The notes: generated by a model not told the origin, from the letters alone. Positions 1 to 17,760 are shown, counted from the stretch's first letter. The stretch is 17,760 nt of DNA from a virus (IMGVR_UViG_2609459861_000001); one strand, 5' to 3'. Numbers and translations: made by a program.

Positions 1-1032
1 TCAAAAACTTGCTATTGATGTTGGTAGTGTTGCCAGCGGATTAAACCGTAATGCAGTTTCCAGGTGATCCGGTGCCAGATGTGCGTAACGCATAGTCATT
101 TTTATATCGTGGTGTCCGAGAATTTTTTGTAAGGCCAGAATGTTTCCACCCGACATCATGAAGTGCGCCGCAAACGTATGGCGCAGAACGTGTGTCAGTT
201 GACCGCGAGGGAGCACGATAGACGTTTTTTCCATCACGGATAAAAATTGAAAATAGCAGTCTGTAAAGAAATTGAACCCATCAAGCGCCATGATCTCTTC
301 GTAAAGCTCTTTACTGATAGGGATGCTTCTGTTTTTCTTCCCCTTCGTTCTTACAAAGGTAATTCGGTATTTGGTCACCTGTGAGCGGGTAAGATTTACG
401 GCTTCACGCCAACGTGCGCCTGTGCTTAAGCATATCTTAACTACCAGTGCCAGAATTGGGTCCTGACGTTTGCAATCAGCCAGCAATTCAACAATCTGCT
501 CATGGGTAAGCCATGCCATCTCTTTTTCTGCGATGGTGAATTTTCGCATGTTCTCCAGTGGGTTCGGATACGACCATTCGCCCAGACGGGATAGTTCGCT
601 AAAAACACTACTTAGATAGCTTTGCTCCAGGTTAATGGTGACCGGGCTTGCTCCTTTCTTCCATTTCTCGCTGAAGTAGATCTCGCCTGTCAGGCGTTTA
701 TCTCGATAGTGGGCAAACATTTTAGAGGTGAGATCGGTTGCAAGAGGATTGCCCAGAGCGTCAACCATCAACAGCAATTTGTCATAGACATGCTGCCCAG
801 CTGTCAGAGATTTACCATGTAGTTTGAACCATAGTTCAACCACGTCTTTCAGTGTTCGACGATCCACTGATTCACCCAGCCAGGGCTTTGCTTCGGTTTC
901 TTCCATCGTGTGGCGCTCAAAAGCCAGAGCTTCGCCTTTGGTGGCGAATTGTTTACGCACACGACGCCCACTACGTCCGGCGGGGTAACATTCGCAAAGC
1001 CATTTTCCTGTGGTGAGTTTTCGTACTGCCAT
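1..1032 (-). CDS. int: P2/186-family tyrosine integrase
   Basis: Minus-strand ORF with stop at 1-3. Start chosen at ATG 1030-1032 (MAVRKLTTGKW..., like P2 Int MAIKKL...) with GGAGG about 11 nt upstream, rather than the track start at 1110. C-terminal region HxLRHT...Y (LRHTFAAH...MRYAHL) is typical of tyrosine recombinases. Confidence 0.85.
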   Translation of the reverse strand: MAVRKLTTGKWLCECYPAGRSGRRVRKQFATKGEALAFERHTMEETEAKPWLGESVDRRTLKDVVELWFKLHGKSLTAGQHVYDKLLLMVDALGNPLATDLTSKMFAHYRDKRLTGEIYFSEKWKKGASPVTINLEQSYLSSVFSELSRLGEWSYPNPLENMRKFTIAEKEMAWLTHEQIVELLADCKRQDPILALVVKICLSTGARWREAVNLTRSQVTKYRITFVRTKGKKNRSIPISKELYEEIMALDGFNFFTDCYFQFLSVMEKTSIVLPRGQLTHVLRHTFAAHFMMSGGNILALQKILGHHDIKMTMRYAHLAPDHLETALRFNPLATLPTSIASF

Positions 1033-1425: not shown

Positions 1426-1995
1426 TTATCTAACATATTTAACTGTTAAACTTATAATTTTTCCAATTATTTCAACATCTTCTATCTTGCAGTCGAAGGC
1501 TCTGTTTCCACCTTCAACGAAGATTCTTCCACCGGGTAAACGAGTAATGTCGCGGATTGTTATCTCGCCATCAATACTTATTACCCATTTACCATCACGT
1601 ATATCATCAAATTCTTTATCACAAATAAATTCAGAATTGTTATCTGTGATGACAAAAGGTTTTTTAAACGTAGAGGGTAGAAATCCCTTATCAAAAATAT
1701 AAAAACCGTCTTCACGCAAGGCACCATCAGATAATACATATTTAGCAACTTCCATAGTATTTGTATTACCTGAAGTTTGCTTTGAACCATGTCCAGTTGT
1801 GAGCCAATTAAGCGAGGTGCCCGTTTCAAGGGCGCACTGGATTACCCATTCTGCTGGGAATGAGTCACGCATGTAGCGTGTGGCGAGTGTACTTTTAGAG
1901 ATTCCTAAATGATCGCACAACGCCTGTCGAGTTTTGAATCCATAAGCTTCTACCATGCGCTCTATAGCGCCTCGTCCGCCTTTCTCCAAATTCAT
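1426..1995 (-). CDS. cI: 186-type CI immunity repressor
   Basis: About 190 aa. Translation aligns by eye with phage 186 CI (EAYGF...CALETG..LNWLTTG; C-terminal LPGG...V.GG). Start taken at ATG 1993-1995 with GGAG upstream; the track start is a GTG at 1999-2001. Confidence 0.8.
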   Translation of the reverse strand: MNLEKGGRGAIERMVEAYGFKTRQALCDHLGISKSTLATRYMRDSFPAEWVIQCALETGTSLNWLTTGHGSKQTSGNTNTMEVAKYVLSDGALREDGFYIFDKGFLPSTFKKPFVITDNNSEFICDKEFDDIRDGKWVISIDGEITIRDITRLPGGRIFVEGGNRAFDCKIEDVEIIGKIISLTVKYVR

Positions 1996-3925: not shown

Positions 3926-4779
3926 GCACCATCCTGAAATGGGCGGGAAATAAAACCGCCATTATGTCCGAACTGAAAAAATACCTTCCTGCTGGCCCGC
4001 GACTGGTTGAACCTTTCGCGGGTTCTTGTGCTGTGATGATGGCGACGGATTACCCCAGCTATCTGGTTGCGGATATTAATCCTGATTTAATCAACCTCTA
4101 TAAAAAGATTGCCGCTGATTGCGAAGCGTTTATATCTCGTGCCAGAGTTTTATTTGAGGAAGCAAACAGTGAGCTGGCTTATTACAACATAAGACAGGAG
4201 TTTAATTACTCAACTGAAATTACTGATTTCATGAAGGCGATATATTTCCTGTATCTCAATCGTCACGGTTACCGTGGTTTATGTCGCTATAACAAGAGCG
4301 GGCATTTCAACATTCCCTACGGTAATTATAAAAATCCGTATTTCCCTGAAAAAGAAATTCGCGCATTTGCAGAGAAAGCCCCGCGGGCAACGTTTATCTG
4401 CGCGAGCTTTGATGAAACGCTGGCGATGTTGAAGGCGCGGGATGTGGTGTATTGCGATCCGCCTTATGACGGTACGTTTTCCGGCTATCACACTGATGGT
4501 TTCACTGAAGATGACCAGTATCACCTGGCATCCGTTCTTGAACATCGAGCATCTGAAGGACATCCGGTCATTGTTTCTAACAGTGACACATCCCTGATCC
4601 GTTCGCTGTATCGCAATTTCACTCACCACTACATCAAGGCAAAACGCAGCATCGGCGTGTCGGCTGGCGAGAGTAAATCTGCAACAGAAATCATTGCTGT
4701 TTCCGGGGCGCGCTGCTGGGTGGGATTTGATCCTTCGCGTGGCGTGGATAGTTCTGCTGTGTACGAGGTGCGTGTATGA
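3922..4779 (+). CDS. dam: Dam-family N6-adenine DNA methyltransferase (likely GATC-specific)
   Basis: 285 aa. [11 protein letters not shown] (motif I, compare E. coli Dam LVEPFVGAGSV) and VVYCDPPY (motif IV DPPY). GGAGGTG RBS. Stop overlaps the gpA start (ATGA). Confidence 0.8.
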
Positions 4780-7190
4780 GTCATGCCGATATGAGCGACT
4801 CTAGCGGCTTTAACGAGGCCGCTGCAGCATTTTCATGGAACGGCCCGAAAAAGGCCATTAACCCTTATCTGGACCCGGCGGAAGTTGCGCCGGTTTCTGC
4901 GCTTTCAAACCTGATCACTCTGTACGCTACCGATAACGAGCAGGAACAACTGCGCCGCGAGGCACTGAGTGATCAGGTCTGGGAGCGTTATTTCTTTAAT
5001 GAATCCCGTGATCCTGTCCAGCGCGAAATGGAGCAGGATAAGCTCATTAGCCGGGCAAAGTTGGCGCATGAGCAGCAGCGTTTTAACCCGGACATGGTCA
5101 TTCTGGCAGACGTCAGCGCCCAGCCCTCCCATATCAGCAAGCCGCTGATGCAACGTATTGAATACTTCAGCAGCCTGGGCAGGCCAAAGGCTTATTCCCG
5201 CTATTTACGTGAGACGATTAAGCCATGTCTGGAACGACTGGAGCATGTACGCGACAGCCAGCTATCTGCATCTTTTCGTTTTATGGCAAGCCATGTAGGG
5301 CTGGACGGCCTGCTGATTCTGCCTGAAATGAGTCAGGATCAGGTGAAACGCCTGTCTACCCTTGTCGCTGCGCATATGAGCATGTGCCTTGACGCAGCTT
5401 GTGGTGATTTGTATGCCACCGATGACGTTAAGCCAGAAGAAATCCGCAAGACATGGGAAAAGGTGGCAGCGGAAACCCTGCGTCTGGATGTCATCCCGCC
5501 TGCGTTTGAGCAACTCCGTCGGAAAAGAAACCGCCGTAAACCCGTGCCCTATGAACTCATTCCGGGTTCGCTGGCGCGTATGTTGTGCGCCGACTGGTGG
5601 TACCGGAAATTATGGAAAATGCGTTGCGAATGGCGGGAAGAGCAGTTGCGTGCTGTCTGCCTGGTCAGCAAAAAAGCATCTCCCTATGTCAGCTATGAAG
5701 CCGTGATGCATAAACGTGAGCAGCGCCGCAAGTCACTGGAGTTTTTCCGTTCTCATGAACTGGTGAACGAAGAGGGCGACACGCTGGATATGGAAGACGT
5801 GGTAAACGCCAGCAGCAGCAACCCGGCGCACCGCCGCAATGAGATGATGGCCTGTGTTAAAGGTCTGGAGCTTATCGCGGAAATGCGCGGTGACTGCGCC
5901 GTTTTCTACACCATTACCTGTCCGTCACGTTTCCATTCTACGCTCAATAACGGCAGACCAAACCCAACCTGGACAAATGCGACGGTAAGACAAAGCAGCG
6001 ATTATCTGGTCGGCATGTTTGCTGCATTTCGTAAGGCGATGCACAAAGCCGGGTTGCGCTGGTATGGCGTGCGGGTGGCTGAGCCGCATCATGACGGTAC
6101 AGTTCACTGGCACCTGTTGTGTTTCATGCGCAAAAAAGACCGCCGCGCCATTACTGCATTGTTGCGTAAGTTTGCCATCCGTGAAGACCGCGAGGAACTG
6201 GGTAATAACACTGGTCCACGCTTTAAATCTGAGCTGATAAACCCGCGCAAAGGTACGCCAACAAGCTACATCGCGAAATACATCAGTAAGAACATTGACG
6301 GGCGTGGTCTGGCTGGCGAGATCAGCAAGGAAACGGGTAAATCCCTGCGTGATAACGCTGAATACGTTAATGCCTGGGCGTCTCTGCATCGTGTTCAGCA
6401 ATTCCGCTTCTTTGGCATTCCGGGGCGTCAGGCTTACCGTGAACTGCGATTGCTGGCTGGTCAGGCGGCAAGGCAGCAGGGTGACAAAAAAGTAGGTGCG
6501 CCGGTACTGGATAACCCGCGCCTTGATGCAATCCTGGCTGCTGCTGATGCTGGTTGTTTTGCCACCTACATCATGAAGCAGGGCGGCGTACTGGTTCCCC
6601 GCAAATATCACCTCATCAGAACTGCTTATGAAATCAACGAAGAGCCGACCGCCTATGGCGATCACGGTATTCGTATTTATGGCATCTGGTCACCCATTGC
6701 AGAGGGCAAGATCTGCACTCATGCGGTGAAGTGGAAAATGGTTCGTAAGGCCGTTGACGTTCAGGAGGCGGCAGCCGACCAGGGCGCTTGCGCCCCTTGG
6801 ACTCGTGGCAATAACTGTCCCCTTGCTGAAAATTTGAACCAACAGGAGAAAGATAAATCAGCTGATGGGGACCCCAGAACGGACATTACCAGCATGGATG
6901 ACAAGGAGTTGCACGATTACCTGCACAGTATGAACAAAAAAGAGCGCCGGGAACTGGCTGCAAGGTTACGCCTGGTGAAACCGAAACGGCGTAAAGACTA
7001 CAAACAGCGAATTACAGACCATCAGCGACTGCAGCTCGTGTATGAGCTGAAGTCCAGAGGATTTGATGGCAGCGAGAAAGAGGTCGATTTACTCCTTCGC
7101 GGAGGCAGTATTCCGTCAGGAGCAGGCCTGCGTATCTTCTATCGGAACCAGCGTTTGCAAGAAGATGATCAGTGGCGGAACCTGTATTAA
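4776..7190 (+). CDS. P2 gpA / 186 RepA-type rolling-circle replication initiation endonuclease
   Basis: 804 aa. HWHLLCF and YIAKYISK (paired active-site tyrosines) are characteristic of the P2 A protein family. GAGGTG RBS. Confidence 0.85.
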
Positions 7191-7282: not shown

Positions 7283-7302
7283 TACTGTAAATATAAACAG
7301 TG
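7283..7302. promoter_or_regulatory. LexA (SOS) box
   Basis: TACTGTAAATATAAACAGTG matches CTGT-N8-ACAG with an AT-rich spacer. It lies about 40 bp upstream of the small ORF and DinI/Tum-like gene. Confidence 0.6.
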
Positions 7303-7343
7303 GTTATGCGTACAGTATTGCGTGTGGTGTCATAGGAGGAAAG

Positions 7344-7532
7344 ATGCAGGACTATTTTTTGGAGTCTTTGAAGCTCCAGCGCATTGATTTTTTTCTTAAG
7401 CTTGTAGCGGCTAGTGAGTGTAGTGATGAAGAGAAGGGGCTGGCTCTGCAGTGGGTTTCTGAATTGACTGATGAACTCATGGCAAAAATCAGAACCCACG
7501 AATACAACCGCTCAATGGATGTCATCAGCTGA
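7344..7532 (+). CDS. small hypothetical protein, first ORF downstream of the LexA box
   Basis: 62 aa from ATG 7344 with AGGAGGA RBS at 7334-7340. The longer track ORF starting at 7242 would begin upstream of the LexA box. Overlaps the 5' part of the next ORF's extended frame. Confidence 0.4.
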   Translation: MQDYFLESLKLQRIDFFLKLVAASECSDEEKGLALQWVSELTDELMAKIRTHEYNRSMDVIS

Positions 7533-7542
7533 GGTGACTTTT

Positions 7543-7776
7543 ATGCGCATTGAAATAATGATCGATAAAGAGCAGAAGATTAGCCAGTCTACCCTGGACG
7601 CCCTTGAATCCGAGCTTTACCGCAATCTGCGCCCCCTGTATCCCAAAACGGTAATTCGCATTCGCAAAGGTAGCTCTAACGGTGTGGAACTAACCGGACT
7701 GCAACTGGACGAAGAAAGAAAACAAGTGATGAAAATTATGCAGAAGGTGTGGGAAGACGACAGCTGGCTGCATTAA
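7543..7776 (+). CDS. DinI-family protein (Tum-like SOS-inducible antirepressor candidate)
   Basis: 77 aa from ATG 7543 with GAGGTG RBS. MRIEIMIDK...LDALESEL.R...P......R......L.G...E....I..I.Q.VWEDDSW aligns by eye with E. coli DinI (MRIEVTIAK...IDALAGELSRR...QETWESADDW). Confidence 0.7.
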   Translation: MRIEIMIDKEQKISQSTLDALESELYRNLRPLYPKTVIRIRKGSSNGVELTGLQLDEERKQVMKIMQKVWEDDSWLH

Positions 7777-7911
7777 GAAACGTTGCTGGCGTCTGAACTT
7801 GCTTCTGGCGTCAGCAAGGTTGAACAACGAGCCCTTGCGAGGCGTTAGCTCTGTAGTGCATGTCTATGCCGCATGAGATCGCATGATCGTTTGAGGATCG
7901 TTTTTGCTAAG

Positions 7912-7936
7912 GCCCGCCAGAACTGGCGGGCTTTTG
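7912..7936 (+). terminator. rho-independent terminator ending the early operon
   Basis: GC-rich hairpin GCCCGCCAG/CTGGCGGGC followed by TTTTG. Confidence 0.55.
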
Positions 7937-7980
7937 CGTAGATCATGCAGGTGCATGAAAACCACTACATAAAGCGGGCA

Positions 7981-7999
7981 GGCGTGGCGGGGATACGAG
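7981..7999. other. cos-like sequence (candidate cohesive-end site)
   Basis: GGCGTGGCGGGGATACGAG matches the first 13 nt of the 186 cohesive end as I recall it (GGCGTGGCGGGGAAAGCAT; P2 GGCGAGGCGGGGAAAGCAC), then diverges. Position between the early operon and the portal gene fits the 186/P2 map. Confidence 0.3.
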
Positions 8000-8085
8000 C
8001 GCGCGCAACTCGAGATAGTGTGATACTTATCTGAGAAATCTTAACAAGGTTCAATACAATACCCTTTCAAAAAAAGGGGAGTGTG

Positions 8086-9237
8086 ATGTTTGTAAAAAAT
8101 AACTTTAATACAAATAATTTCGATGCGGAATTAGTTGAAGCGATTGGTAATAGGCTGGAAAACAACCAATTTTCGGATGCAATACTTGCAGGAACCAAAT
8201 ATCTAACAACTTTGCTGCGTGAAAAAGGGCAATGTGAAGGGGATGGGGCTCAGCTTGTTGGTACTGTTTTGGGTGGACAATCACCTAGAATCCAAATTAA
8301 TAGTCTTCAATCTGTATCAGAGCAGGACGAACAGCGCGGATTTGAAGCACTATTAAGAGGCTACTATCAGTGTATAAGAAATCCAAGGACACATGACAAT
8401 TTCCCTGATACAGAAGATTCCTGCATGAGAATATTGATCATGTTGGATACTTTTATTAAGTATTTAAAAAGAGATGTTGCTGAGTTCGATTACACAGCAA
8501 TTCTTGAAAGAATTTATGAGGTTCACTTTGTAAATAATTCTGATTATGCAGAAGCTTTAATATCACAAATTCCAGAAAAAAAACTACTAGATTTTTTCCA
8601 AAGTTTAATTTCTCGCTTTAATGAAAGGCCAACCAAGGAAATTGATTCTATATTCAAAGCAATAAACCAACGCTTTTCAGGAGAGGAAGAAAAAGCCGCA
8701 ATGCGGTTGCTAGGTGATGAGTTACGCAAGGCTAGCAATAATGTTGAGTTTGCTAATGTATTTAGAATAATTAAGCCGAGCGCATGGAGAAATCTTCCTG
8801 ATGATGTTTTAATTAGAATGGAAAATATAATCATCGAAGAGTGCAAAAAAGGATATTTGGATTTCTATTCTGATGCGACCAAAGGAGCTATAGGAACATG
8901 GGGTAATACATTTGGTAGCAAATTTAAAAGAAGAGGTGATCTTGGTGATGCTTTAATTGGATTGTTATATGATAGTTGGTATACGCAAAATTATGTTGCG
9001 AAATATTACGTTTTTTCAATCCCTTCTATCATTACTGATGATGTGAAAGTTAAGGAGTTAGCTGATGCTTTAGCTTATGCCACCATTGTAAATGGTGCTA
9101 AGCTTTTACGAACAAAATTGATTGATGCATGTAAAAATTATCCTGATAAGTTGAAAGAGCATCTTAGGGATGCTGTTCAGCAACGGATGGATAGTGATAA
9201 AAAATATGCGGAAGAATTATTAGGTCAAATAAGCTGA
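8086..9237 (+). CDS. A+T-rich cargo gene: protein with N-terminal HEPN-like domain (Rx4H motif) and uncharacterised C-terminal domain; candidate anti-phage defence
   Basis: 383 aa from ATG 8086 (GTG 8083 also in frame) with AAGGGGAG RBS. Codon usage and base composition are visibly A+T-rich compared with neighbouring phage genes. Motif CIRNPRTHD (R99...H104, nt 8377-8394) at the end of a roughly 125-aa N-terminal domain resembles the HEPN Rx4-6H signature. Own terminator downstream. Confidence 0.6.
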   Translation: MFVKNNFNTNNFDAELVEAIGNRLENNQFSDAILAGTKYLTTLLREKGQCEGDGAQLVGTVLGGQSPRIQINSLQSVSEQDEQRGFEALLRGYYQCIRNPRTHDNFPDTEDSCMRILIMLDTFIKYLKRDVAEFDYTAILERIYEVHFVNNSDYAEALISQIPEKKLLDFFQSLISRFNERPTKEIDSIFKAINQRFSGEEEKAAMRLLGDELRKASNNVEFANVFRIIKPSAWRNLPDDVLIRMENIIIEECKKGYLDFYSDATKGAIGTWGNTFGSKFKRRGDLGDALIGLLYDSWYTQNYVAKYYVFSIPSIITDDVKVKELADALAYATIVNGAKLLRTKLIDACKNYPDKLKEHLRDAVQQRMDSDKKYAEELLGQIS

Positions 9238-9246
9238 TTATTATTT

Positions 9247-9284
9247 GCACCTAATCTCACTTTCGATGTTAGGTGCATTTCTAT
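9247..9284 (+). terminator. candidate terminator after the cargo gene
   Basis: Inverted repeat GCACCTAA (9247-9254) / TTAGGTGC (9269-9276) with a 14-nt loop, followed by ATTTCTATAT. Lies between the convergent cargo gene and portal gene. Confidence 0.35.
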
Positions 9285-9288
9285 ATGC

Positions 9289-10323
9289 CTAATCTAATTC
9301 ATATGAGGTAAATTTAACCAGTTCTTCATTAAGTCCAATCCATGAGTTAATTTCAGATATTCTGTGTTGTAGCGGAATTAACTCATTCCTGACAAAAACC
9401 TTACTAGCCTTTTCAACATCCCCAAACCCGCCAACATTACTAGGCATAATCCCCATCATCTGCGGCGGTACACGGTGCGCTGCCATCATGTCATCCCGGC
9501 TCACGTTCTTGATGTTAAGAAACTCATCTTTTGCAGCCACCTCTGACAGCGGGATGATCTGAATCCCGTCTTTCTTTCCGTTGGGTGAGTACATAAACAA
9601 GTTGCGGAAGTTGCCCGGCCCTTTGGCGCTTTTCATCGCATTGCGGAGGTTGTTCACATCCTCCTGGTTCTGCGCGGCATCGGTCATGTACATGATGAAG
9701 CCTGCATGACTACCGTTAATGTAATATTTGCGGCGGAACAGCGTGGCGGACTCGTTGAGCAAAGCGGATGGGATGGCAGAAAGATAGCCGGGCAGGCCGT
9801 AGATCTCCTGATTAATATCTGGTTCCATCAGATGAAAAATGCTGCCTTTCGTGAACTGATATGGCTGGGTTGTCATACCGTATTGCACAAACCAGTAGGT
9901 ATCCAGGTCTAACCCGCGTCGGGTATATTTTGCCAGGGCAGGCTCAAGGGCGATAACTTCACCGAAGCGGTTCGTGCGTTTCTCCAGGTAGGCGTTACCA
10001 AATACCAGGTAGTCCTGCACAAAACGTGAAAAAGCCTGCTGGCTGAGCAGCGGGTGAGGGATATAGGTACTGGTCAGAATGTTGCACTTTACTGCAATCG
10101 GGGAACTGTGATGCACGGCAGCGCGGAAGGTGCGCGCCAGTCCGTCAAAGCTGACGGGCGGCTCATACCAACGGTCCATCTGTACGCATTCCACATAATC
10201 CAGCAGTTCTCGGCGGTCCAGAACAGGAACGGGATCGCCGAAGCTGAATGCTTCGGCTGTAGTTTGACTTTTAAGCTGGATCTGTTTCGTCGCCGCAGCG
10301 CGGTTCTTCTTACTCTTTCCCAT
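9289..10323 (-). CDS. portal protein (P2 gpQ-like)
   Basis: 344 aa from ATG 10321-10323, same length as P2 gpQ. Its start overlaps the terminase stop (ATGA), indicating translational coupling. Position and size match P2/186. Confidence 0.8.
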   Translation of the reverse strand: MGKSKKNRAAATKQIQLKSQTTAEAFSFGDPVPVLDRRELLDYVECVQMDRWYEPPVSFDGLARTFRAAVHHSSPIAVKCNILTSTYIPHPLLSQQAFSRFVQDYLVFGNAYLEKRTNRFGEVIALEPALAKYTRRGLDLDTYWFVQYGMTTQPYQFTKGSIFHLMEPDINQEIYGLPGYLSAIPSALLNESATLFRRKYYINGSHAGFIMYMTDAAQNQEDVNNLRNAMKSAKGPGNFRNLFMYSPNGKKDGIQIIPLSEVAAKDEFLNIKNVSRDDMMAAHRVPPQMMGIMPSNVGGFGDVEKASKVFVRNELIPLQHRISEINSWIGLNEELVKFTSYELD

Positions 10324-12089
10324 CAAAAAATCTCCACAATATTGCTGGTATTGGCGGATTCGCCCTGCAGCGGTTCGTTAAACAGTGCGTGCATTGTTGC
10401 CCAGGCCAGATCGGCATGGCTGGCTTCTTCGCTGCGGCTGGCTTCATAGGTTGGGCGGTTGCCGCTGGCGGTGGTGGCGCGACGGATTGCCATAAATGAC
10501 TGCGCTATGTCGGTGTGTCCGGCGTCAAACTCCAGACGACGGTGACTGATAATGTCGTAGGCCTTGAGTACCAGGGCGTTTTTAACGTTGGGGTTGTAGA
10601 CAAACTCCCGGACGGCTGGAAAAAACGCTTTCACGTTCTCGTAAACCCCGTGGCCGACACCTGTCGAGTCGATGCCGATGTAGGTCACGTTGTACTGTTC
10701 GGTCAGTTTTTTGATGGCGTCAGCCTGGGCGCGAAAGTCCATTCCGCGCCACTGGTGACGCTCAAGAATGCGGAACTTGCCGCCCGGCACGGCTGGCGGT
10801 GCCACCACCACGCATCCGGCGCTGTCGCCATTCTGCGTACCTTTCGCCGGGTCATAACCGATCCATACTTCGCGCCAGCCAAACGGGCGCAGGGCCAGTG
10901 CATGAAAGTCAGTCCAGACTTCCCAGCTGTCTACCATGCACGCCTGCAGCTCGCTGAGCGGGAACACGGACGCGAGATCGTCCACAAACTCGCACATCAG
11001 CAGGTTCTGGTATTCGTCCGGGCTGTACTCCATGCGCAACTGGTCAAGGTCGAACAGGTTACAGCCGCCGCGCACCGCATCTTCCACGGTGACTATCTGG
11101 CGGTATTGCCCGTCTGCGCACAGCAGGCCGGGGGCCAGATTGCTGTGGGACAGGTCGATGTCCACCTTATCGGCTTTGTTGCGCCCACGGTTGAACAGCG
11201 CACCGGACCAGAACGGATAAGCACTGTGTGTCAGGCTGGATGGCGTGGAAAAATAGGTTTGTCGCCATTTTTTGTGAATAGCCATACCGGAAGCCACTTT
11301 GCGCAGCTCCTGGAATTTCGGTATCCAGAAATATTCATCCAGATACAGGTTGCCGTGGTAACTCTGGGCCGTGCGGGCATTGGTGCCGAGGAAGTAAAGC
11401 GTGGCCCCGTTGGGAAGCACCATCGGATCGCCTTTCAGCTCCACCTCCACTTCTTTGGCGAAGTCGATGATGTACTGCTTAAAGACGTGGGCCTGTGCCT
11501 TACTGGCAGAAAGGAAAATCTGGTTACGTCCGGTAAGCAGGGCGTCAATCAGGGCTTCACGGGCAAAATAGAAGGTCGCGCCGATCTGGCGTGACTTCAG
11601 CAGGTTGCGGATGCGGTTGGTTTTTCCGGCTTCCCACCAGTGGCGCTGGTAGTTGAACATGGAGGAATGGAAAATTTCTTCCAGCTTCTCAATCTGTTCA
11701 TCGGTGAAAACATTCTTTTCAGGCTGACGGCGTGGGCCTTTGTTGCGGTTGGCGACGTTAGGGTTTAAGTCAGCTTCGTTGCCGCCATTGTTAAACTTGC
11801 CGATCCGCGCGTGGCGCTCCGACTGGCGCGCCAGCAGGTCAATCTCTTTGAAATCTTTCCCTTCTTTGTGCTCCTTCATGATGAGCTGGCAGTAGCGTGC
11901 GGCGGTGGTGAGCTGCATCTGATCCAGCGGCCCATAGTCACCCCACTTGTCGCGTTTTTTCCAGCTGTGAACGGTTGCAACTTTCTCGCCCAGCATTTCA
12001 GCAATGCGGGCTACGCGGTATCCCTGAAAGTACAGCAGCATGGCCTGCCGACGGGGATCGAGATCTGCGGGTGTCAGTGTGGTGTTCAT
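10323..12089 (-). CDS. terminase large (ATPase) subunit (P2 gpP-like)
   Basis: 588 aa, matching P2 gpP in size and in its position upstream of the portal gene on the same strand. Confidence 0.8.
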   Translation of the reverse strand: MNTTLTPADLDPRRQAMLLYFQGYRVARIAEMLGEKVATVHSWKKRDKWGDYGPLDQMQLTTAARYCQLIMKEHKEGKDFKEIDLLARQSERHARIGKFNNGGNEADLNPNVANRNKGPRRQPEKNVFTDEQIEKLEEIFHSSMFNYQRHWWEAGKTNRIRNLLKSRQIGATFYFAREALIDALLTGRNQIFLSASKAQAHVFKQYIIDFAKEVEVELKGDPMVLPNGATLYFLGTNARTAQSYHGNLYLDEYFWIPKFQELRKVASGMAIHKKWRQTYFSTPSSLTHSAYPFWSGALFNRGRNKADKVDIDLSHSNLAPGLLCADGQYRQIVTVEDAVRGGCNLFDLDQLRMEYSPDEYQNLLMCEFVDDLASVFPLSELQACMVDSWEVWTDFHALALRPFGWREVWIGYDPAKGTQNGDSAGCVVVAPPAVPGGKFRILERHQWRGMDFRAQADAIKKLTEQYNVTYIGIDSTGVGHGVYENVKAFFPAVREFVYNPNVKNALVLKAYDIISHRRLEFDAGHTDIAQSFMAIRRATTASGNRPTYEASRSEEASHADLAWATMHALFNEPLQGESANTSNIVEIF

Positions 12090-12135
12090 GGCACAAACCT
12101 ACAACCTTGAATGAAGGCTTTCCCCGCCTGCGGTT

Positions 12136-12153
12136 TGTGTGGTTGTCGGTACA
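12136..12153. promoter_or_regulatory. candidate Ogr/Delta-dependent late promoter element (TGT-N12-ACA)
   Basis: TGTGTGGTTGTCGGTACA fits TGT-N12-ACA. Its centre is about 55-60 bp upstream of a plausible rightward start site preceding the ORF at 12232. Confidence 0.4.
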
Positions 12154-12231
12154 AATACCGCGCATTGTTTCACTGCCCCCATCACCGCAACCATAAGGCT
12201 CCAGTAAGTTTTTTCTAACGGAGCACGGCTC

Positions 12232-13017
12232 ATGACAGTGAAAGCAAAGCGTTTTCGCATCGGGGTGGAAGGTGCCACCACCGACGGACGCGAAATCCAG
12301 CGTGAATGGTTTACTGATCTGCTGACGCCCGTTAAGTCGACCTCTGCCGAACTGCAGAGCGCAGCGGCCATGGGGCGACGATTCGGGGAGGCACTGGCAG
12401 AAGGGCTGAATATGGTCATGCATCCGCTGGACTCCCTGAAATCCGGCGTTTCCTGGTTGCTGGAGAAACTCGGCATTGTCAGTAAAGAGGCTGCAAAGGC
12501 GAAACTGCCGGAAAGCGTGACGCGTCAGCAACCTGCGACGGTGAAGGCAGACGGTAAAGTGATGATGCCATCGGGTGATTTTCCGTCATGGGGATATGGC
12601 TTTGCGGGGATGTATGACAGCGGCGGCTATATCCCGCGCGGGCAGTTTGGCATCGTCGGTGAAAACGGGCCGGAAATTGTTAACGGCCCGGCAAACGTGA
12701 CCAGCCGGAGAAATACAGCTGCACTGGCTGCCGTTGTCGCCGGAATGATGGGTGTTGCTGCCGCGCCAGCAGAGCTTCCACCGTTGCATCCTTTGGCGCT
12801 TCCCGCAAAAGGCGGTGAAGCGATGGTGAGTCGTGCAGCTACTGTGCCGCCCATTTACCGGATTGAAGCACCGACGCAGATCATCATCCAGACACAGCCA
12901 GGACAAAGTGCGCAGGATATTGCGCGGGAGGTGGCCCGCCAGCTTGATGAACGTGAACGCAGGCTGAAGGCAAAAGCCAGGAGTAACTACAGCGATCAGG
13001 GGGGATACGACGCATGA
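12232..13017 (+). CDS. probable deletion-fusion ORF: capsid scaffold gpO-like N-terminus joined to tail tape-measure-like (gpT) C-terminus
   Basis: N-terminus KRFRIGVEGATTDGREI resembles P2 gpO (KFFRIGVEGDTCDGRVI). The rest (GMYDSGGYIPRGQFGIVGENGPEIV) resembles C-terminal motifs of tape-measure proteins, and the ORF is followed directly by gpU and gpD as T is in P2. Confidence 0.5.
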   Translation: MTVKAKRFRIGVEGATTDGREIQREWFTDLLTPVKSTSAELQSAAAMGRRFGEALAEGLNMVMHPLDSLKSGVSWLLEKLGIVSKEAAKAKLPESVTRQQPATVKADGKVMMPSGDFPSWGYGFAGMYDSGGYIPRGQFGIVGENGPEIVNGPANVTSRRNTAALAAVVAGMMGVAAAPAELPPLHPLALPAKGGEAMVSRAATVPPIYRIEAPTQIIIQTQPGQSAQDIAREVARQLDERERRLKAKARSNYSDQGGYDA

Positions 13018-13499
13018 TGATGGTGCTGGGATTGTACGTGTTTATGCTGCGCACCGTGCCATATCAGGAGCTGCAGTATCAACGCAGCTGGCGACATGCG
13101 GCAAACAGCCGGGTAAACCGATGTCCGTCCACGCAGTTTCTGGGACCGGACAACGACATGCTGACGCTTTCCGGTGTTCTTATGCCGGAGATAACAGGTG
13201 GCAGGCTGTCGTTGCTGGCACTGGAGCAGATGGCAGAACAGGGGAAAGCATGGCCCCTGATTGAAGGCAGTGGCACGATTTATGGCATGTATGTGATTGA
13301 GGGACTGAATCAGACTAAAACGGAGTTTTTCCGCGACGGTATGCCGCGCCGGATTGAGTTCACCCTGTCGCTCAAACGGGTGGATGAATCCCTGTCCGAT
13401 ATATTCGGTGATCTCAGTGCGCAACTGAATAATCTGCAGGACACAGCAACGTCTGCCTTAAGCGATATCAGTAAAACGGTGGGAGGGCTGCTGTCATGA
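13014..13499 (+). CDS. tail protein gpU-like
   Basis: 161 aa, MMMVLGLYVFMLRTVP... resembles P2 gpU in sequence and size. ATGATGATG start overlaps the upstream stop. Confidence 0.8.
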   Translation: MMMVLGLYVFMLRTVPYQELQYQRSWRHAANSRVNRCPSTQFLGPDNDMLTLSGVLMPEITGGRLSLLALEQMAEQGKAWPLIEGSGTIYGMYVIEGLNQTKTEFFRDGMPRRIEFTLSLKRVDESLSDIFGDLSAQLNNLQDTATSALSDISKTVGGLLS

Positions 13500-14596
13500 A
13501 TTTCAGCTCTGAACTGCTTAACAAAGGCAACAAAACTCCCGCATTCAGCATCAGTATTGAGGGCAGGGATATCACCACTGTGCTGGATAACCGCCTGATG
13601 AGTTTGACGCTGACGGACAATCGGGGCTTTGAAGCGGACCAGCTTGATCTGGAGCTGGACGACGCCGACGGAAAAATCGTGCTGCCGCGCCGTGGTGCGG
13701 TCATTACGCTGGCGCTGGGCTGGAAGGGGCAGCCGCTTTTCCCGAAAGGGGCATTCACGGTGGACGAGATTGAACACACTGGCGCACCGGACCGCCTGAC
13801 TATCCGGGCGCGAAGTGCTGATTTTCGTGAAACACTGAATACCCGTCGTGAAAAGTCGTGGCACAAGACCACCGTTGGGGAAGTGGTGAAGGAAATAGCT
13901 GCGCGGCACAAACTGAAGATGGCATTGGGTAAAGACCTGTCAGATAAACCCGTGGAACATATAGATCAGACCAATGAGAGTGACGGCAGTTTTCTGATGC
14001 GGCTGGCGCGCCAGTACGGTGCTATTGCGTCGGTGAAAAATGGCAATCTGTTATTCATCCGACAGGGGCAGGGTAAAAGCGCCAGTGGTAAACCACTACC
14101 GGTTATCACTATCACACGTAAGGACGGCGACAGTCACCGCTTTACCCTGGCAGATCGCGGAGCTTACACGGGCGTAATTGCCAGCTGGTTGCATACCCGC
14201 GAACCCGCGAAGAAAGAAAGCACCGCGGTGAAGCGTAAGCGCAGGACTAAGAAGCAGAAGAAAGAGCCGGAAACGAAGCAGGGCGATTATCTGGTGGGTA
14301 CGGATGAAAACGTGCTGGTACTTAATCGCACCTATGCTAATCGGAGTAACGCCGAACGGGCAGCGAAAATGCAGTGGGAACGCCTGCAACGCGGCGTTGC
14401 GTCATTCTCGCTACAACTGGCGGAAGGGCGGGCAGATCTCTACACGGAAATGCCAGTGAAAGTCAGTGGCTTTAAACAGCCGATAGATGATGCGGAATGG
14501 ACCATTACGACTCTGACGCATACCGTCAGCCCCGATAACGGTTTTACAACCAGTCTGGAGCTTGAAGTGAGGATTGATGATTTCGAAATGGAATGA
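13496..14596 (+). CDS. tail protein gpD-like
   Basis: 366 aa immediately after gpU with ATGA overlap. Order U-D-ogr matches P2. Confidence 0.8.
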   Translation: MNFSSELLNKGNKTPAFSISIEGRDITTVLDNRLMSLTLTDNRGFEADQLDLELDDADGKIVLPRRGAVITLALGWKGQPLFPKGAFTVDEIEHTGAPDRLTIRARSADFRETLNTRREKSWHKTTVGEVVKEIAARHKLKMALGKDLSDKPVEHIDQTNESDGSFLMRLARQYGAIASVKNGNLLFIRQGQGKSASGKPLPVITITRKDGDSHRFTLADRGAYTGVIASWLHTREPAKKESTAVKRKRRTKKQKKEPETKQGDYLVGTDENVLVLNRTYANRSNAERAAKMQWERLQRGVASFSLQLAEGRADLYTEMPVKVSGFKQPIDDAEWTITTLTHTVSPDNGFTTSLELEVRIDDFEME

Positions 14597-14686
14597 TTCT
14601 TCGCAATGGAGAACTTTTAAGTTTGCAAAATGGAATAATGCGGTATCATTATTGTGAATTTAGCAAAAATGGGGAGAACTCGAAAA

Positions 14687-14905
14687 ATGATGATTTGCCC
14701 ACTGTGTGGAAGTGCCGCCCATACTCGCAGCAGTTTTCAGGTATCTTCATTGACCAAAGAGCGTTACAACCAGTGCCAGAACATTAACTGCAGCCATACT
14801 TTTGTTACCCATGAAACTTTTGTTCGTTCGATTGCAACGCCAAAAGAGTCAAATCCGGTTCAGCCACATCCAATGAAATCAGGACAGGTGGCGCTCTCTC
14901 TTTGA
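14687..14905 (+). CDS. ogr: Ogr/Delta-family zinc-finger late-gene transcription activator
   Basis: 72 aa from ATG 14687 (MMICPLCGSAAHTRSSF...KERYNQCQNINCSHTF, compare P2 Ogr MFHCPLCQHAAHARTS...KERYHQCQNVNCSATF). GGGGAGA RBS. The track ORF starts at an upstream GTG. Confidence 0.8.
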   Translation: MMICPLCGSAAHTRSSFQVSSLTKERYNQCQNINCSHTFVTHETFVRSIATPKESNPVQPHPMKSGQVALSL

Positions 14906-15140
14906 CGCTGCCGCCATTTTGTCGCCATCGTTAAAAAACAGTGTTTCTAACATCATGATTTTAAACAGCTTAAATTTCAGGCAACAAAAAACCCATCAAC
15001 CTTGAACCGAAATGGCGGGGGTGATGGGCTCCACAAAATGGGGACATCAAAGAAAAGCAGTGGCACTAATTAAGACTGATGCCCTGCGGAAAAGTTCTGC
15101 GGTTGTGCAAAAAAATTTCATTTTCAGGGCAACTTCAGTT

Positions 15141-17502: not shown

Positions 17503-17760
17503 TCAGGCGTCCAGATTTTCTTTCACCCATGCAGCAAAATCGGTATAGCCGCCGATATGTTGCTGATCGACAAAAATCTGCGGCACGGTTTCTACGGGTT
17601 TACCTGCCTTTTGTTGTAGATCTTCTTTAGTGATCCCTTCCGCACGAATATCTACATACTGATACTGAAAATCATCGCGTTCATTGCTCAATTTCTCAGC
17701 CAGATCTTTTGCACGCACACAGTAAGGGCAACCCGAACGACCAAAAATAACGGTTTGCAT
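17503..17760 (-). CDS. grxA: glutaredoxin 1
   Basis: 85 aa with the CPYC active site (GRSGCPYCVRAK). The ATG is at the last three bases of the window. Confidence 0.9.
   Translation of the reverse strand: MQTVIFGRSGCPYCVRAKDLAEKLSNERDDFQYQYVDIRAEGITKEDLQQKAGKPVETVPQIFVDQQHIGGYTDFAAWVKENLDA

Follow-up and report, generated by a model that had tools for sequence, protein, structure and literature searches.

The locus described here raises a simple question: what has become of the capsid, lysis and tail genes in a P2/186-like element whose large terminase gene, P, is separated from U by one open reading frame only (12232-13017, 261 aa)? An earlier note on this DNA had claimed that the whole capsid-lysis-tail block is missing and that the remaining ORF starts like gpO and ends like a tape-measure protein, and both claims were borne out. 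The window (the whole stretch of DNA that was analysed, 17,760 nucleotides) matches the E. coli W5-6 chromosome at 100% identity and, judged by its gene content and order, is a defective Peduoviridae (P2/186-like) prophage located in the E. coli chromosome between rcdA and ybjL. Peduoviridae records match its DNA at 95-100% identity, and the PGAP gene table of W5-6 together with Pfam searches gives the P2-type order, i.e. int-CI-cox...A, cos, Q-P divergent from O, and ...T-U-D-ogr-attR. From att core to att core the remnant measures ~15.46 kb in W5-6, where the two copies of the core occupy positions 2235-2253 and 17679-17697 of the locus record. The window begins ~467 nt inside attL, and the attL copy of the core, which agrees at 16 of 19 positions, lies outside the window and adjoins rcdA.

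In the RefSeq/PGAP annotation of the identical W5-6 region, the T fragment is the only pseudogene and all other genes of the remnant are uninterrupted, among them the early genes int, CI, the cox-like gene, CII, fil, Dam and gpA. Immunity, replication, the LexA-box and DinI-like module, the cargo gene and ogr are thus all retained as uninterrupted ORFs, as the earlier note had stated, although the ORF at 14593-14787 is not ogr; that gene lies at 14687-14905, with a sigma-70-like promoter match at 14622-14649 in a promoter scan. Coordinates of these features, and of the re-used breakpoints discussed below, are collected in Table 1.

Table 1. Features of the remnant in window coordinates, followed by breakpoints re-used among deletions at rcdA/ybjL.
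Feature	Position	Strand	Evidence or remark
Integrase	1-1032	-	PGAP 'phage integrase' WP_000290938.1 in W5-6; same protein in intact EC361
CI repressor (immunity)	1426-1995	-	PGAP 'phage repressor protein CI'; identical in intact EC361
Replication endonuclease gpA	4776-7190	+	PF05840 Phage_GPA, 425 bits
'SOS module' (LexA-box-like sequence, small ORF, DinI-like gene)	7285-7776	+	Pattern search, Pfam, PGAP
Small ORF of SOS module	7344-7532	+	Downstream of LexA-box pattern CTGTAAATATAAACAG
DinI-like gene	7543-7776	+	PF06183 DinI, 80 bits; PGAP
cos site	7949-8006		57/58 bases match the 'putative cos site' annotated where the phage Cartapus genome begins
Cargo gene, Hypoth_Ymh/TIGR02391, HEPN-like	8086-9237	+	PF09509, 82 bits
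Portal gpQ	9289-10323	-	PF04860, PGAP
Large terminase (ATPase) gpP, intact	10323-12089	-	Pfam Terminase_5, Terminase_6N, Terminase_6C
P-O divergent intergenic region, whole	12090-12231		Identical to intact prophages
gpO', first 26 codons of capsid scaffold/protease gene	12232-12309	+	Residues 1-26 identical to XJW9B277 gpO
Deletion junction, TGG at both parental sites	12307-12309		Three-way DNA alignment; 3-bp microhomology, shared Trp codon
'gpT, codons 790-1025 and stop, in frame with gpO	12307-13017	+	BLASTP, PGAP
gpU, intact	13014-13499	+	PF06995, 147 bits; WP_032258246.1, identical in intact XJW9B277
gpD (baseplate hub / late control D), intact	13496-14596	+	PF05954, 96 bits; PGAP
ogr (late-gene activator)	14687-14905	+	PGAP 'ogr/Delta-like zinc finger' WP_000972391.1
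attR core CAGGCAACAAAAAACCCAT	14978-14996		Annotated attR of Klebsiella phage 4LV2017
Left break, GF31 and CPE35	12143-12145		After ...GTGTGGTTG; joined to different points in T
Left break, window and EC50	12306-12309		...GCGTGAATG(G); T codon 790 versus ~235 nt further
Left break, NCTC9041 and MB7671	near gpO 3' end		...CAGGACTA(CC); joined to T and to D
Left break, PSJ-16 and STEC308			...CAGGCGGTA(C); joined to D and to 3' end of invertase gene
Right break, H5 and AST205	in gene E		Directly before TGACCGAAG; left partners in gpO and in gpP
Breakpoints at rcdA/ybjL, locus-record positions	L006/L007 ~2346; L008 (EC50) ~2507; L005 ~3216; L012 ~3250; L018 ~1300		
gpO 3'-end breakpoints, locus records	L019, L020, L021, L022, L024 (STEC308)		

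The ORF between P and U is a gpO/gpT chimera. In a BLASTP alignment with gpO of the intact XJW9B277 prophage, 26 of 27 aligned residues are identical and residue 27 is the one that differs, while residues 26-261 of the ORF match gpT residues 790-1025 of the same prophage without exception (236/236). Alignment of the translation with gpO and gpT, and of the DNA with both parents, places the junction at a TGG triplet: the window tracks the gpO parent to ...GCGTGAATGG and the gpT parent from TGGTTTACTG..., and its DNA is identical to that of intact prophages up to 12309. Megablast against phage genomes independently gave the same limits, with left-arm homology running from the portal gene to 12309 and right-arm homology from 12307 to attR. 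The W5-6 position corresponding to 12307 is also where PGAP starts the pseudogene that it names 'phage tail tape measure protein, incomplete, missing N-terminus'. Reading frame is preserved across the join, and the stop codon of the fusion overlaps the start of gpU (ATGA) as in the intact T-U pair.

Little of the GPO domain, and none of the tape-measure signature domains, survives in the fused product. Against the GPO capsid scaffold/protease family (PF05929), the fusion aligns over positions 2-26 of 268 with 30.7 bits, below the gathering score of 33.6, compared with 378.8 bits over positions 2-268 for intact gpO. The signature domains of intact gpT (TIGR01760, aa 200-567; PF10145, aa 246-457) both lie in the deleted part and are absent from the fusion, which retains aa 790-1025 alone. 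No NCBIfam model matched the fusion ORF, and a full-length colinear match of the 261 residues to any one family was sought by BLASTP, Pfam and NCBIfam and not found. The ORF is accordingly best described as a chimeric pseudogene, a by-product of the join and not a new protein.

Sequences upstream of the fusion have been carried over unaltered. A GGAG at 12219-12222 lies 9 nt before the ATG of gpO', and a TGT-N12-ACA dyad is present at 12136-12153 in the P-O spacer. In P2 late promoters the Ogr site is found at the position matching that of this dyad. The motif was rejected as evidence for a late promoter in its own right, as its five matches in the window against 4.4 expected are not significant alone and the inference is positional only. 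Because the P-O region, the gpO Shine-Dalgarno sequence and the T/U overlap are all retained, the shortened operon O'-'T-U-D is probably still driven from the putative P_O promoter and its ribosome-binding site when Ogr is made.

From coordinate offsets to the intact XJW9B277 prophage, the deletion measures 18,291 bp, and comparison with the intact prophages at the same locus (XJW9B277 and EC361) places 26 whole genes between O and T, all of which were lost together with most of O and three quarters of T. Because the two arms of the remnant match two different intact prophages, this inventory is drawn from a mosaic comparison, with XJW9B277 as the comparator. In order, the missing genes are those of the head (major capsid N, small terminase M, head completion L), with X; the lysis genes (holin, endolysin, LysA-like, LysB and LysC), which lie between L/X and R in both XJW9B277 and EC361; R and S, followed by a DUF4435 gene and an AAA-ATPase gene; the baseplate and fibre genes V, W, J, I, H and G; an invertible fibre segment in two fragments, with its invertase; and the tail genes for sheath (FI), tube (FII), E and E'. 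The DUF4435 and AAA-ATPase pair of XJW9B277 lies between S and V (7465-9568 of the locus record), inside the deleted interval, and EC361 has no such pair at its S-V position. This pair resembles the PARIS anti-phage defence system; if the progenitor of the remnant carried it, a putative defence system would have gone with the deletion.

Nothing elsewhere in the element replaces what was lost: PGAP annotates no capsid, small-terminase, lysis, sheath, tube or baseplate genes anywhere in the remnant of W5-6. The particle-forming head set (major capsid, scaffold/protease, small terminase and head completion) is absent save for the 26 codons of gpO, the lysis cassette (holin, endolysin, spanins) is absent from the window, and the contractile tail set is reduced to 'T(790-1025), U and D, with no sheath, tube, V/W/J/I, fibres or full tape measure. 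Without N, O and L there would be no capsids, without gpM no cutting at cos, and without tails or lysis genes no release of particles, from which we infer that the remnant would be unable to form particles on its own. SOS induction should for the same reason, i.e. the loss of the lysis genes, no longer end in phage-mediated lysis of the host. Excision and replication of the remnant may still be possible, given that it has int, cox, A and cos as well as both att cores.

The left part of the element preserves several features of its own. The LexA-box-like sequence CTGTAAATATAAACAG at 7285-7300 is the single match to the pattern in the window, against 0.23 expected; it is a perfect match and lies upstream of the small ORF and the DinI-like gene. 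The segment 7285-7776, a putative SOS module, resembles the SOS-controlled tum module of phage 186. The cos site, which contains GGCGTGGCGGGGATACGAG at 7981-7999, was placed by means of the Cartapus genome; the P2 cos 19-mer (GGCGAGGCGGGGAAAGCAC) had no match in the window at three or fewer mismatches. It follows the DinI-like gene and precedes the cargo gene (window 7949-9237), so that the latter, flanked by cos on one side and the portal gene on the other, occupies the left end of the genome as packaged. The cargo protein is identical in intact XJW9B277 and has weak PADLOC matches to PD-Lambda-3_B (2.4e-14) and Aga_HEPN (2.1e-9). Other occupants of this slot are a DUF4145 gene in Cartapus and three genes, including one for a HIRAN-domain protein, in EC361; a slot of this kind is reportedly a defence hotspot in P2-like phages.

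The parental sequences on both sides of the junction are still represented by intact prophages at rcdA/ybjL. The cargo, portal, terminase (WP_001098431.1), gpU and Ogr proteins of the window are identical to those of XJW9B277, and EC361 has the same proteins as the window from int through Dam. The early region of XJW9B277 differs from that of the window, with an extra DUF4041 gene and a different CI. Because the early arm corresponds to EC361 and the cargo and late arms to XJW9B277, the progenitor was presumably a mosaic of modules both of which are extant in undeleted form; the exact progenitor, combining the window's early and late regions without the deletion, was not found. A further record, ON470620.1 ('Escherichia phage vB_EcoM-813R9'), is 100% identical to the left arm of the window and is a prophage with host flanks. 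It ends inside the tail-fibre gene H and continues with ybjT, ybjS and amiD in inverted order, an arrangement suggestive of an inversion or deletion in the chromosome, one end of which would lie in the fibre region. Because of these host flanks and the rearranged end, it does not represent a complete phage genome.

Of complete E. coli chromosomes, 27 have the same junction, and their sources (cattle, pigs, dogs, humans and river water) span several countries. Over 5,852 nt across the junction, 25 of these are 100.0% identical and the other two, both of strain 744, are 99.9% identical. The junction was seen at one chromosomal locus only. A 30-mer spanning it had a single exact match in IMG/VR, which was the window itself (IMGVR_UViG_2724679074_000002), and none in a one-genome-per-species set or in metagenome contigs. 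This distribution points to vertical inheritance in one widespread, successful E. coli lineage. Literature searches combining ybjL and prophage returned nothing describing this remnant.

Taken together, these observations are most simply accounted for by a defective prophage that arose in one deletion, an interpretation to which we assign a probability of roughly 0.93. A single illegitimate-recombination event at the 3-bp microhomology would have fused codon 26 of gpO to codon 790 of gpT at TGG, removing 18.3 kb from within O through N ... E', along with any cargo between S and V. That the product is in frame would be a 1-in-3 chance outcome, and the remnant would then have been passed on vertically. 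Nothing in the sequences that we compared contradicts a single deletion.

The locus has undergone such losses repeatedly. In other E. coli, the P2-like prophages at rcdA/ybjL have lost internal segments in at least 19 different ways, and this abundance indicates that such decay is common here. EC50 has a deletion of the terminase C terminus in addition to its main deletion, and STEC308 combines a frameshifted terminase with a gpO-to-invertase join and a sheath-to-U join; the presence of several separate lesions in these two strains is indicative of stepwise decay at the same locus. Nineteen distinct deletions, ascertained by similarity to the window and with junctions read from DNA alignments, were examined for the positions of their ends, which fall in P, the P-O spacer, O, N, M, the sheath gene, E, T, U and D. 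Five pairs of deletions share a breakpoint to within 0-4 nt while differing in the partner breakpoint (Table 1), and a stretch of 85 nt at the 3' end of gpO contains six left breakpoints. With breakpoints assumed to be uniform (a naive model, applied post hoc), the probability of at least four coincident left pairs in 19 events is ~1e-4. Three of the four left hotspots lie 0-2 nt from the base of a perfect 5-bp hairpin, compared with 7.9% of background positions (likewise a post hoc comparison), and two left hotspots flank one hairpin, CCGCC-N11-GGCGG.

Descent of one member of a pair from the other does not readily account for the shared breakpoints. It was excluded for NCTC9041 and MB7671, each of which keeps bases missing in the other, and for the other pairs it would require a second deletion from the same nucleotide. 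Clustering of right breakpoints in gpT was discounted as largely a matter of ascertainment, as the query required the T'-U-D arm, of which T is the adjoining 3-kb gene, and a longer query returned endpoints also in P, N, M, the sheath gene, E, U and D. Four candidate causes were examined by eye and found no support. A 7/8 Chi-like sequence (ACTGGTGG) near the gpO 3' cluster, with none at the other hotspots, was all that could be found in favour of Chi-protected ends; GGTTTAC occurs at two right breakpoints, but no matching left half-site accompanies it as quasi-gix/cix sites for a Cin-like invertase would have; no restriction site is common to the junctions; and no IS element is present at any junction to suggest an IS-mediated adjacent deletion. 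Based on the re-used breakpoints, it is conceivable, albeit doubtful, that the deletion in the window was produced by breakage and rejoining at preferred sites, a process that would disarm the P2-like prophages of rcdA/ybjL time and again. If this were true, structure-directed breakage or some nuclease or recombinase would set the cut points, consistently sparing the arm that carries immunity, replication and cargo.

A quite different interpretation is that the remnant is mobile, i.e. that it excises, replicates, and is packaged from cos by a P2-like helper, either co-resident or superinfecting, and so spreads its cargo gene in the manner of a satellite; a dimer of ~31 kb, for example, could be packaged in a 33-kb head. 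The integrase, cox-like gene, gpA, both att cores, cos, portal and large terminase are indeed intact, and five of the 27 carriers have further chromosomal P2-like copies (3 places per record). However, the other 22 carriers lack a second P2-like copy of P/T/U/D and so have no helper at hand, and the remnant contains no genes for exploiting a helper, whether by capsid-size redirection or by derepression or transactivation, all of its genes being P2-like. The junction lies inside two ORFs, as an accident would leave it, and its restriction to one locus, together with its absence from IMG/VR (bar the window), metagenome contigs and the one-genome-per-species set, likewise speaks against mobility. 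In addition, at least 19 other remnants at this locus have a broken P, U or D. We therefore consider mobility of this kind very improbable.

Still less probable is that the fusion itself has been co-opted, such that O'-'T, U and D, expressed from an Ogr-dependent P_O, act as a decoy, poisoning the tails of superinfecting P2-like phages as they assemble, and are maintained by selection. The in-frame join, the retained promoter region, gpO ribosome-binding site and T/U-start overlap, and the intactness of U and D would all accord with this proposal, although one in three random joins would be in frame. Moreover, EC50 has the same left breakpoint but is out of frame (4 extra nt, which PGAP renders as two fragments), U or D is truncated in other remnants, and the carriers show no sequence divergence on which selection could be tested. 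Finally, the idea that the 18 kb is really present but was collapsed out of the contig, as can happen in misassembled contigs of the kind from which the window, an IMG/VR predicted viral region of an isolate genome, was taken, is refuted by the identical junction in 27 independently sequenced complete chromosomes, which rules out misassembly, and by its clean 3-bp microhomology with no collapsible repeat.

We return, then, to the single deletion at a microhomology, which makes this a case of ordinary prophage decay of a well-known kind, the T part of which was already flagged in RefSeq as a truncated pseudogene. Decay by deletion is reportedly the general picture for prophages. For annotators, the practical consequence is that an IMG/VR 'viral' contig corresponds to a non-viable prophage remnant, and that the strain carrying it should be unable to release this phage. 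The remnant also provides a cleanly dated case of one-step prophage disarmament for which both parental sequences are still available and in which the immunity repressor and the HEPN-like cargo gene have been retained. The element matters little by itself, and only the re-use of breakpoints might repay further work: with dozens of presumably independent deletions of one prophage family at one site, rcdA/ybjL could be a useful natural data set on prophage loss. A defective prophage that should no longer lyse its host agrees with what is known of prophage decay and 'grounding' (PMC6379469).

Among classified phages, the closest relatives of the remnant belong to the genus Elveevirus of the Peduoviridae, e.g. 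Escherichia phage Cartapus and Klebsiella phage 4LV2017. The intact rcdA/ybjL prophages XJW9B277 and EC361 share with it the site, att core and gene order, with arms that are 95-100% identical at the nucleotide level, and, in the case of EC361, identical int, CI, CII and Dam proteins; they differ in that the remnant lacks 18.3 kb and, as its gene content predicts, would yield neither virions nor lysis. An R-type tailocin was considered and rejected, as sheath, tube, baseplate, fibre and lysis genes are all absent from the PGAP annotation. P4-type satellites and PICI resemble the remnant in their size (~15 kb), integrase, replication functions, P2-type cos and lack of capsid and tail genes, but the remnant has neither the sid/psu/delta-type genes for helper manipulation nor a P4 alpha-type primase. 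Its colinearity with P2-like phages to either side of a junction that is itself intragenic marks it as a deletion derivative and not a satellite lineage. The nearest parallels are the cryptic P2 remnants and defective prophages of E. coli, which likewise have suffered internal deletion, retain their att-proximal ends, immunity and cargo, and are inherited vertically. One of these is the ogrK/D' segment of E. coli K-12, which has reportedly been described as such a remnant. Relative to it, the remnant between rcdA and ybjL is much younger and larger, with arms 100% identical to those of intact prophages and with uninterrupted genes.
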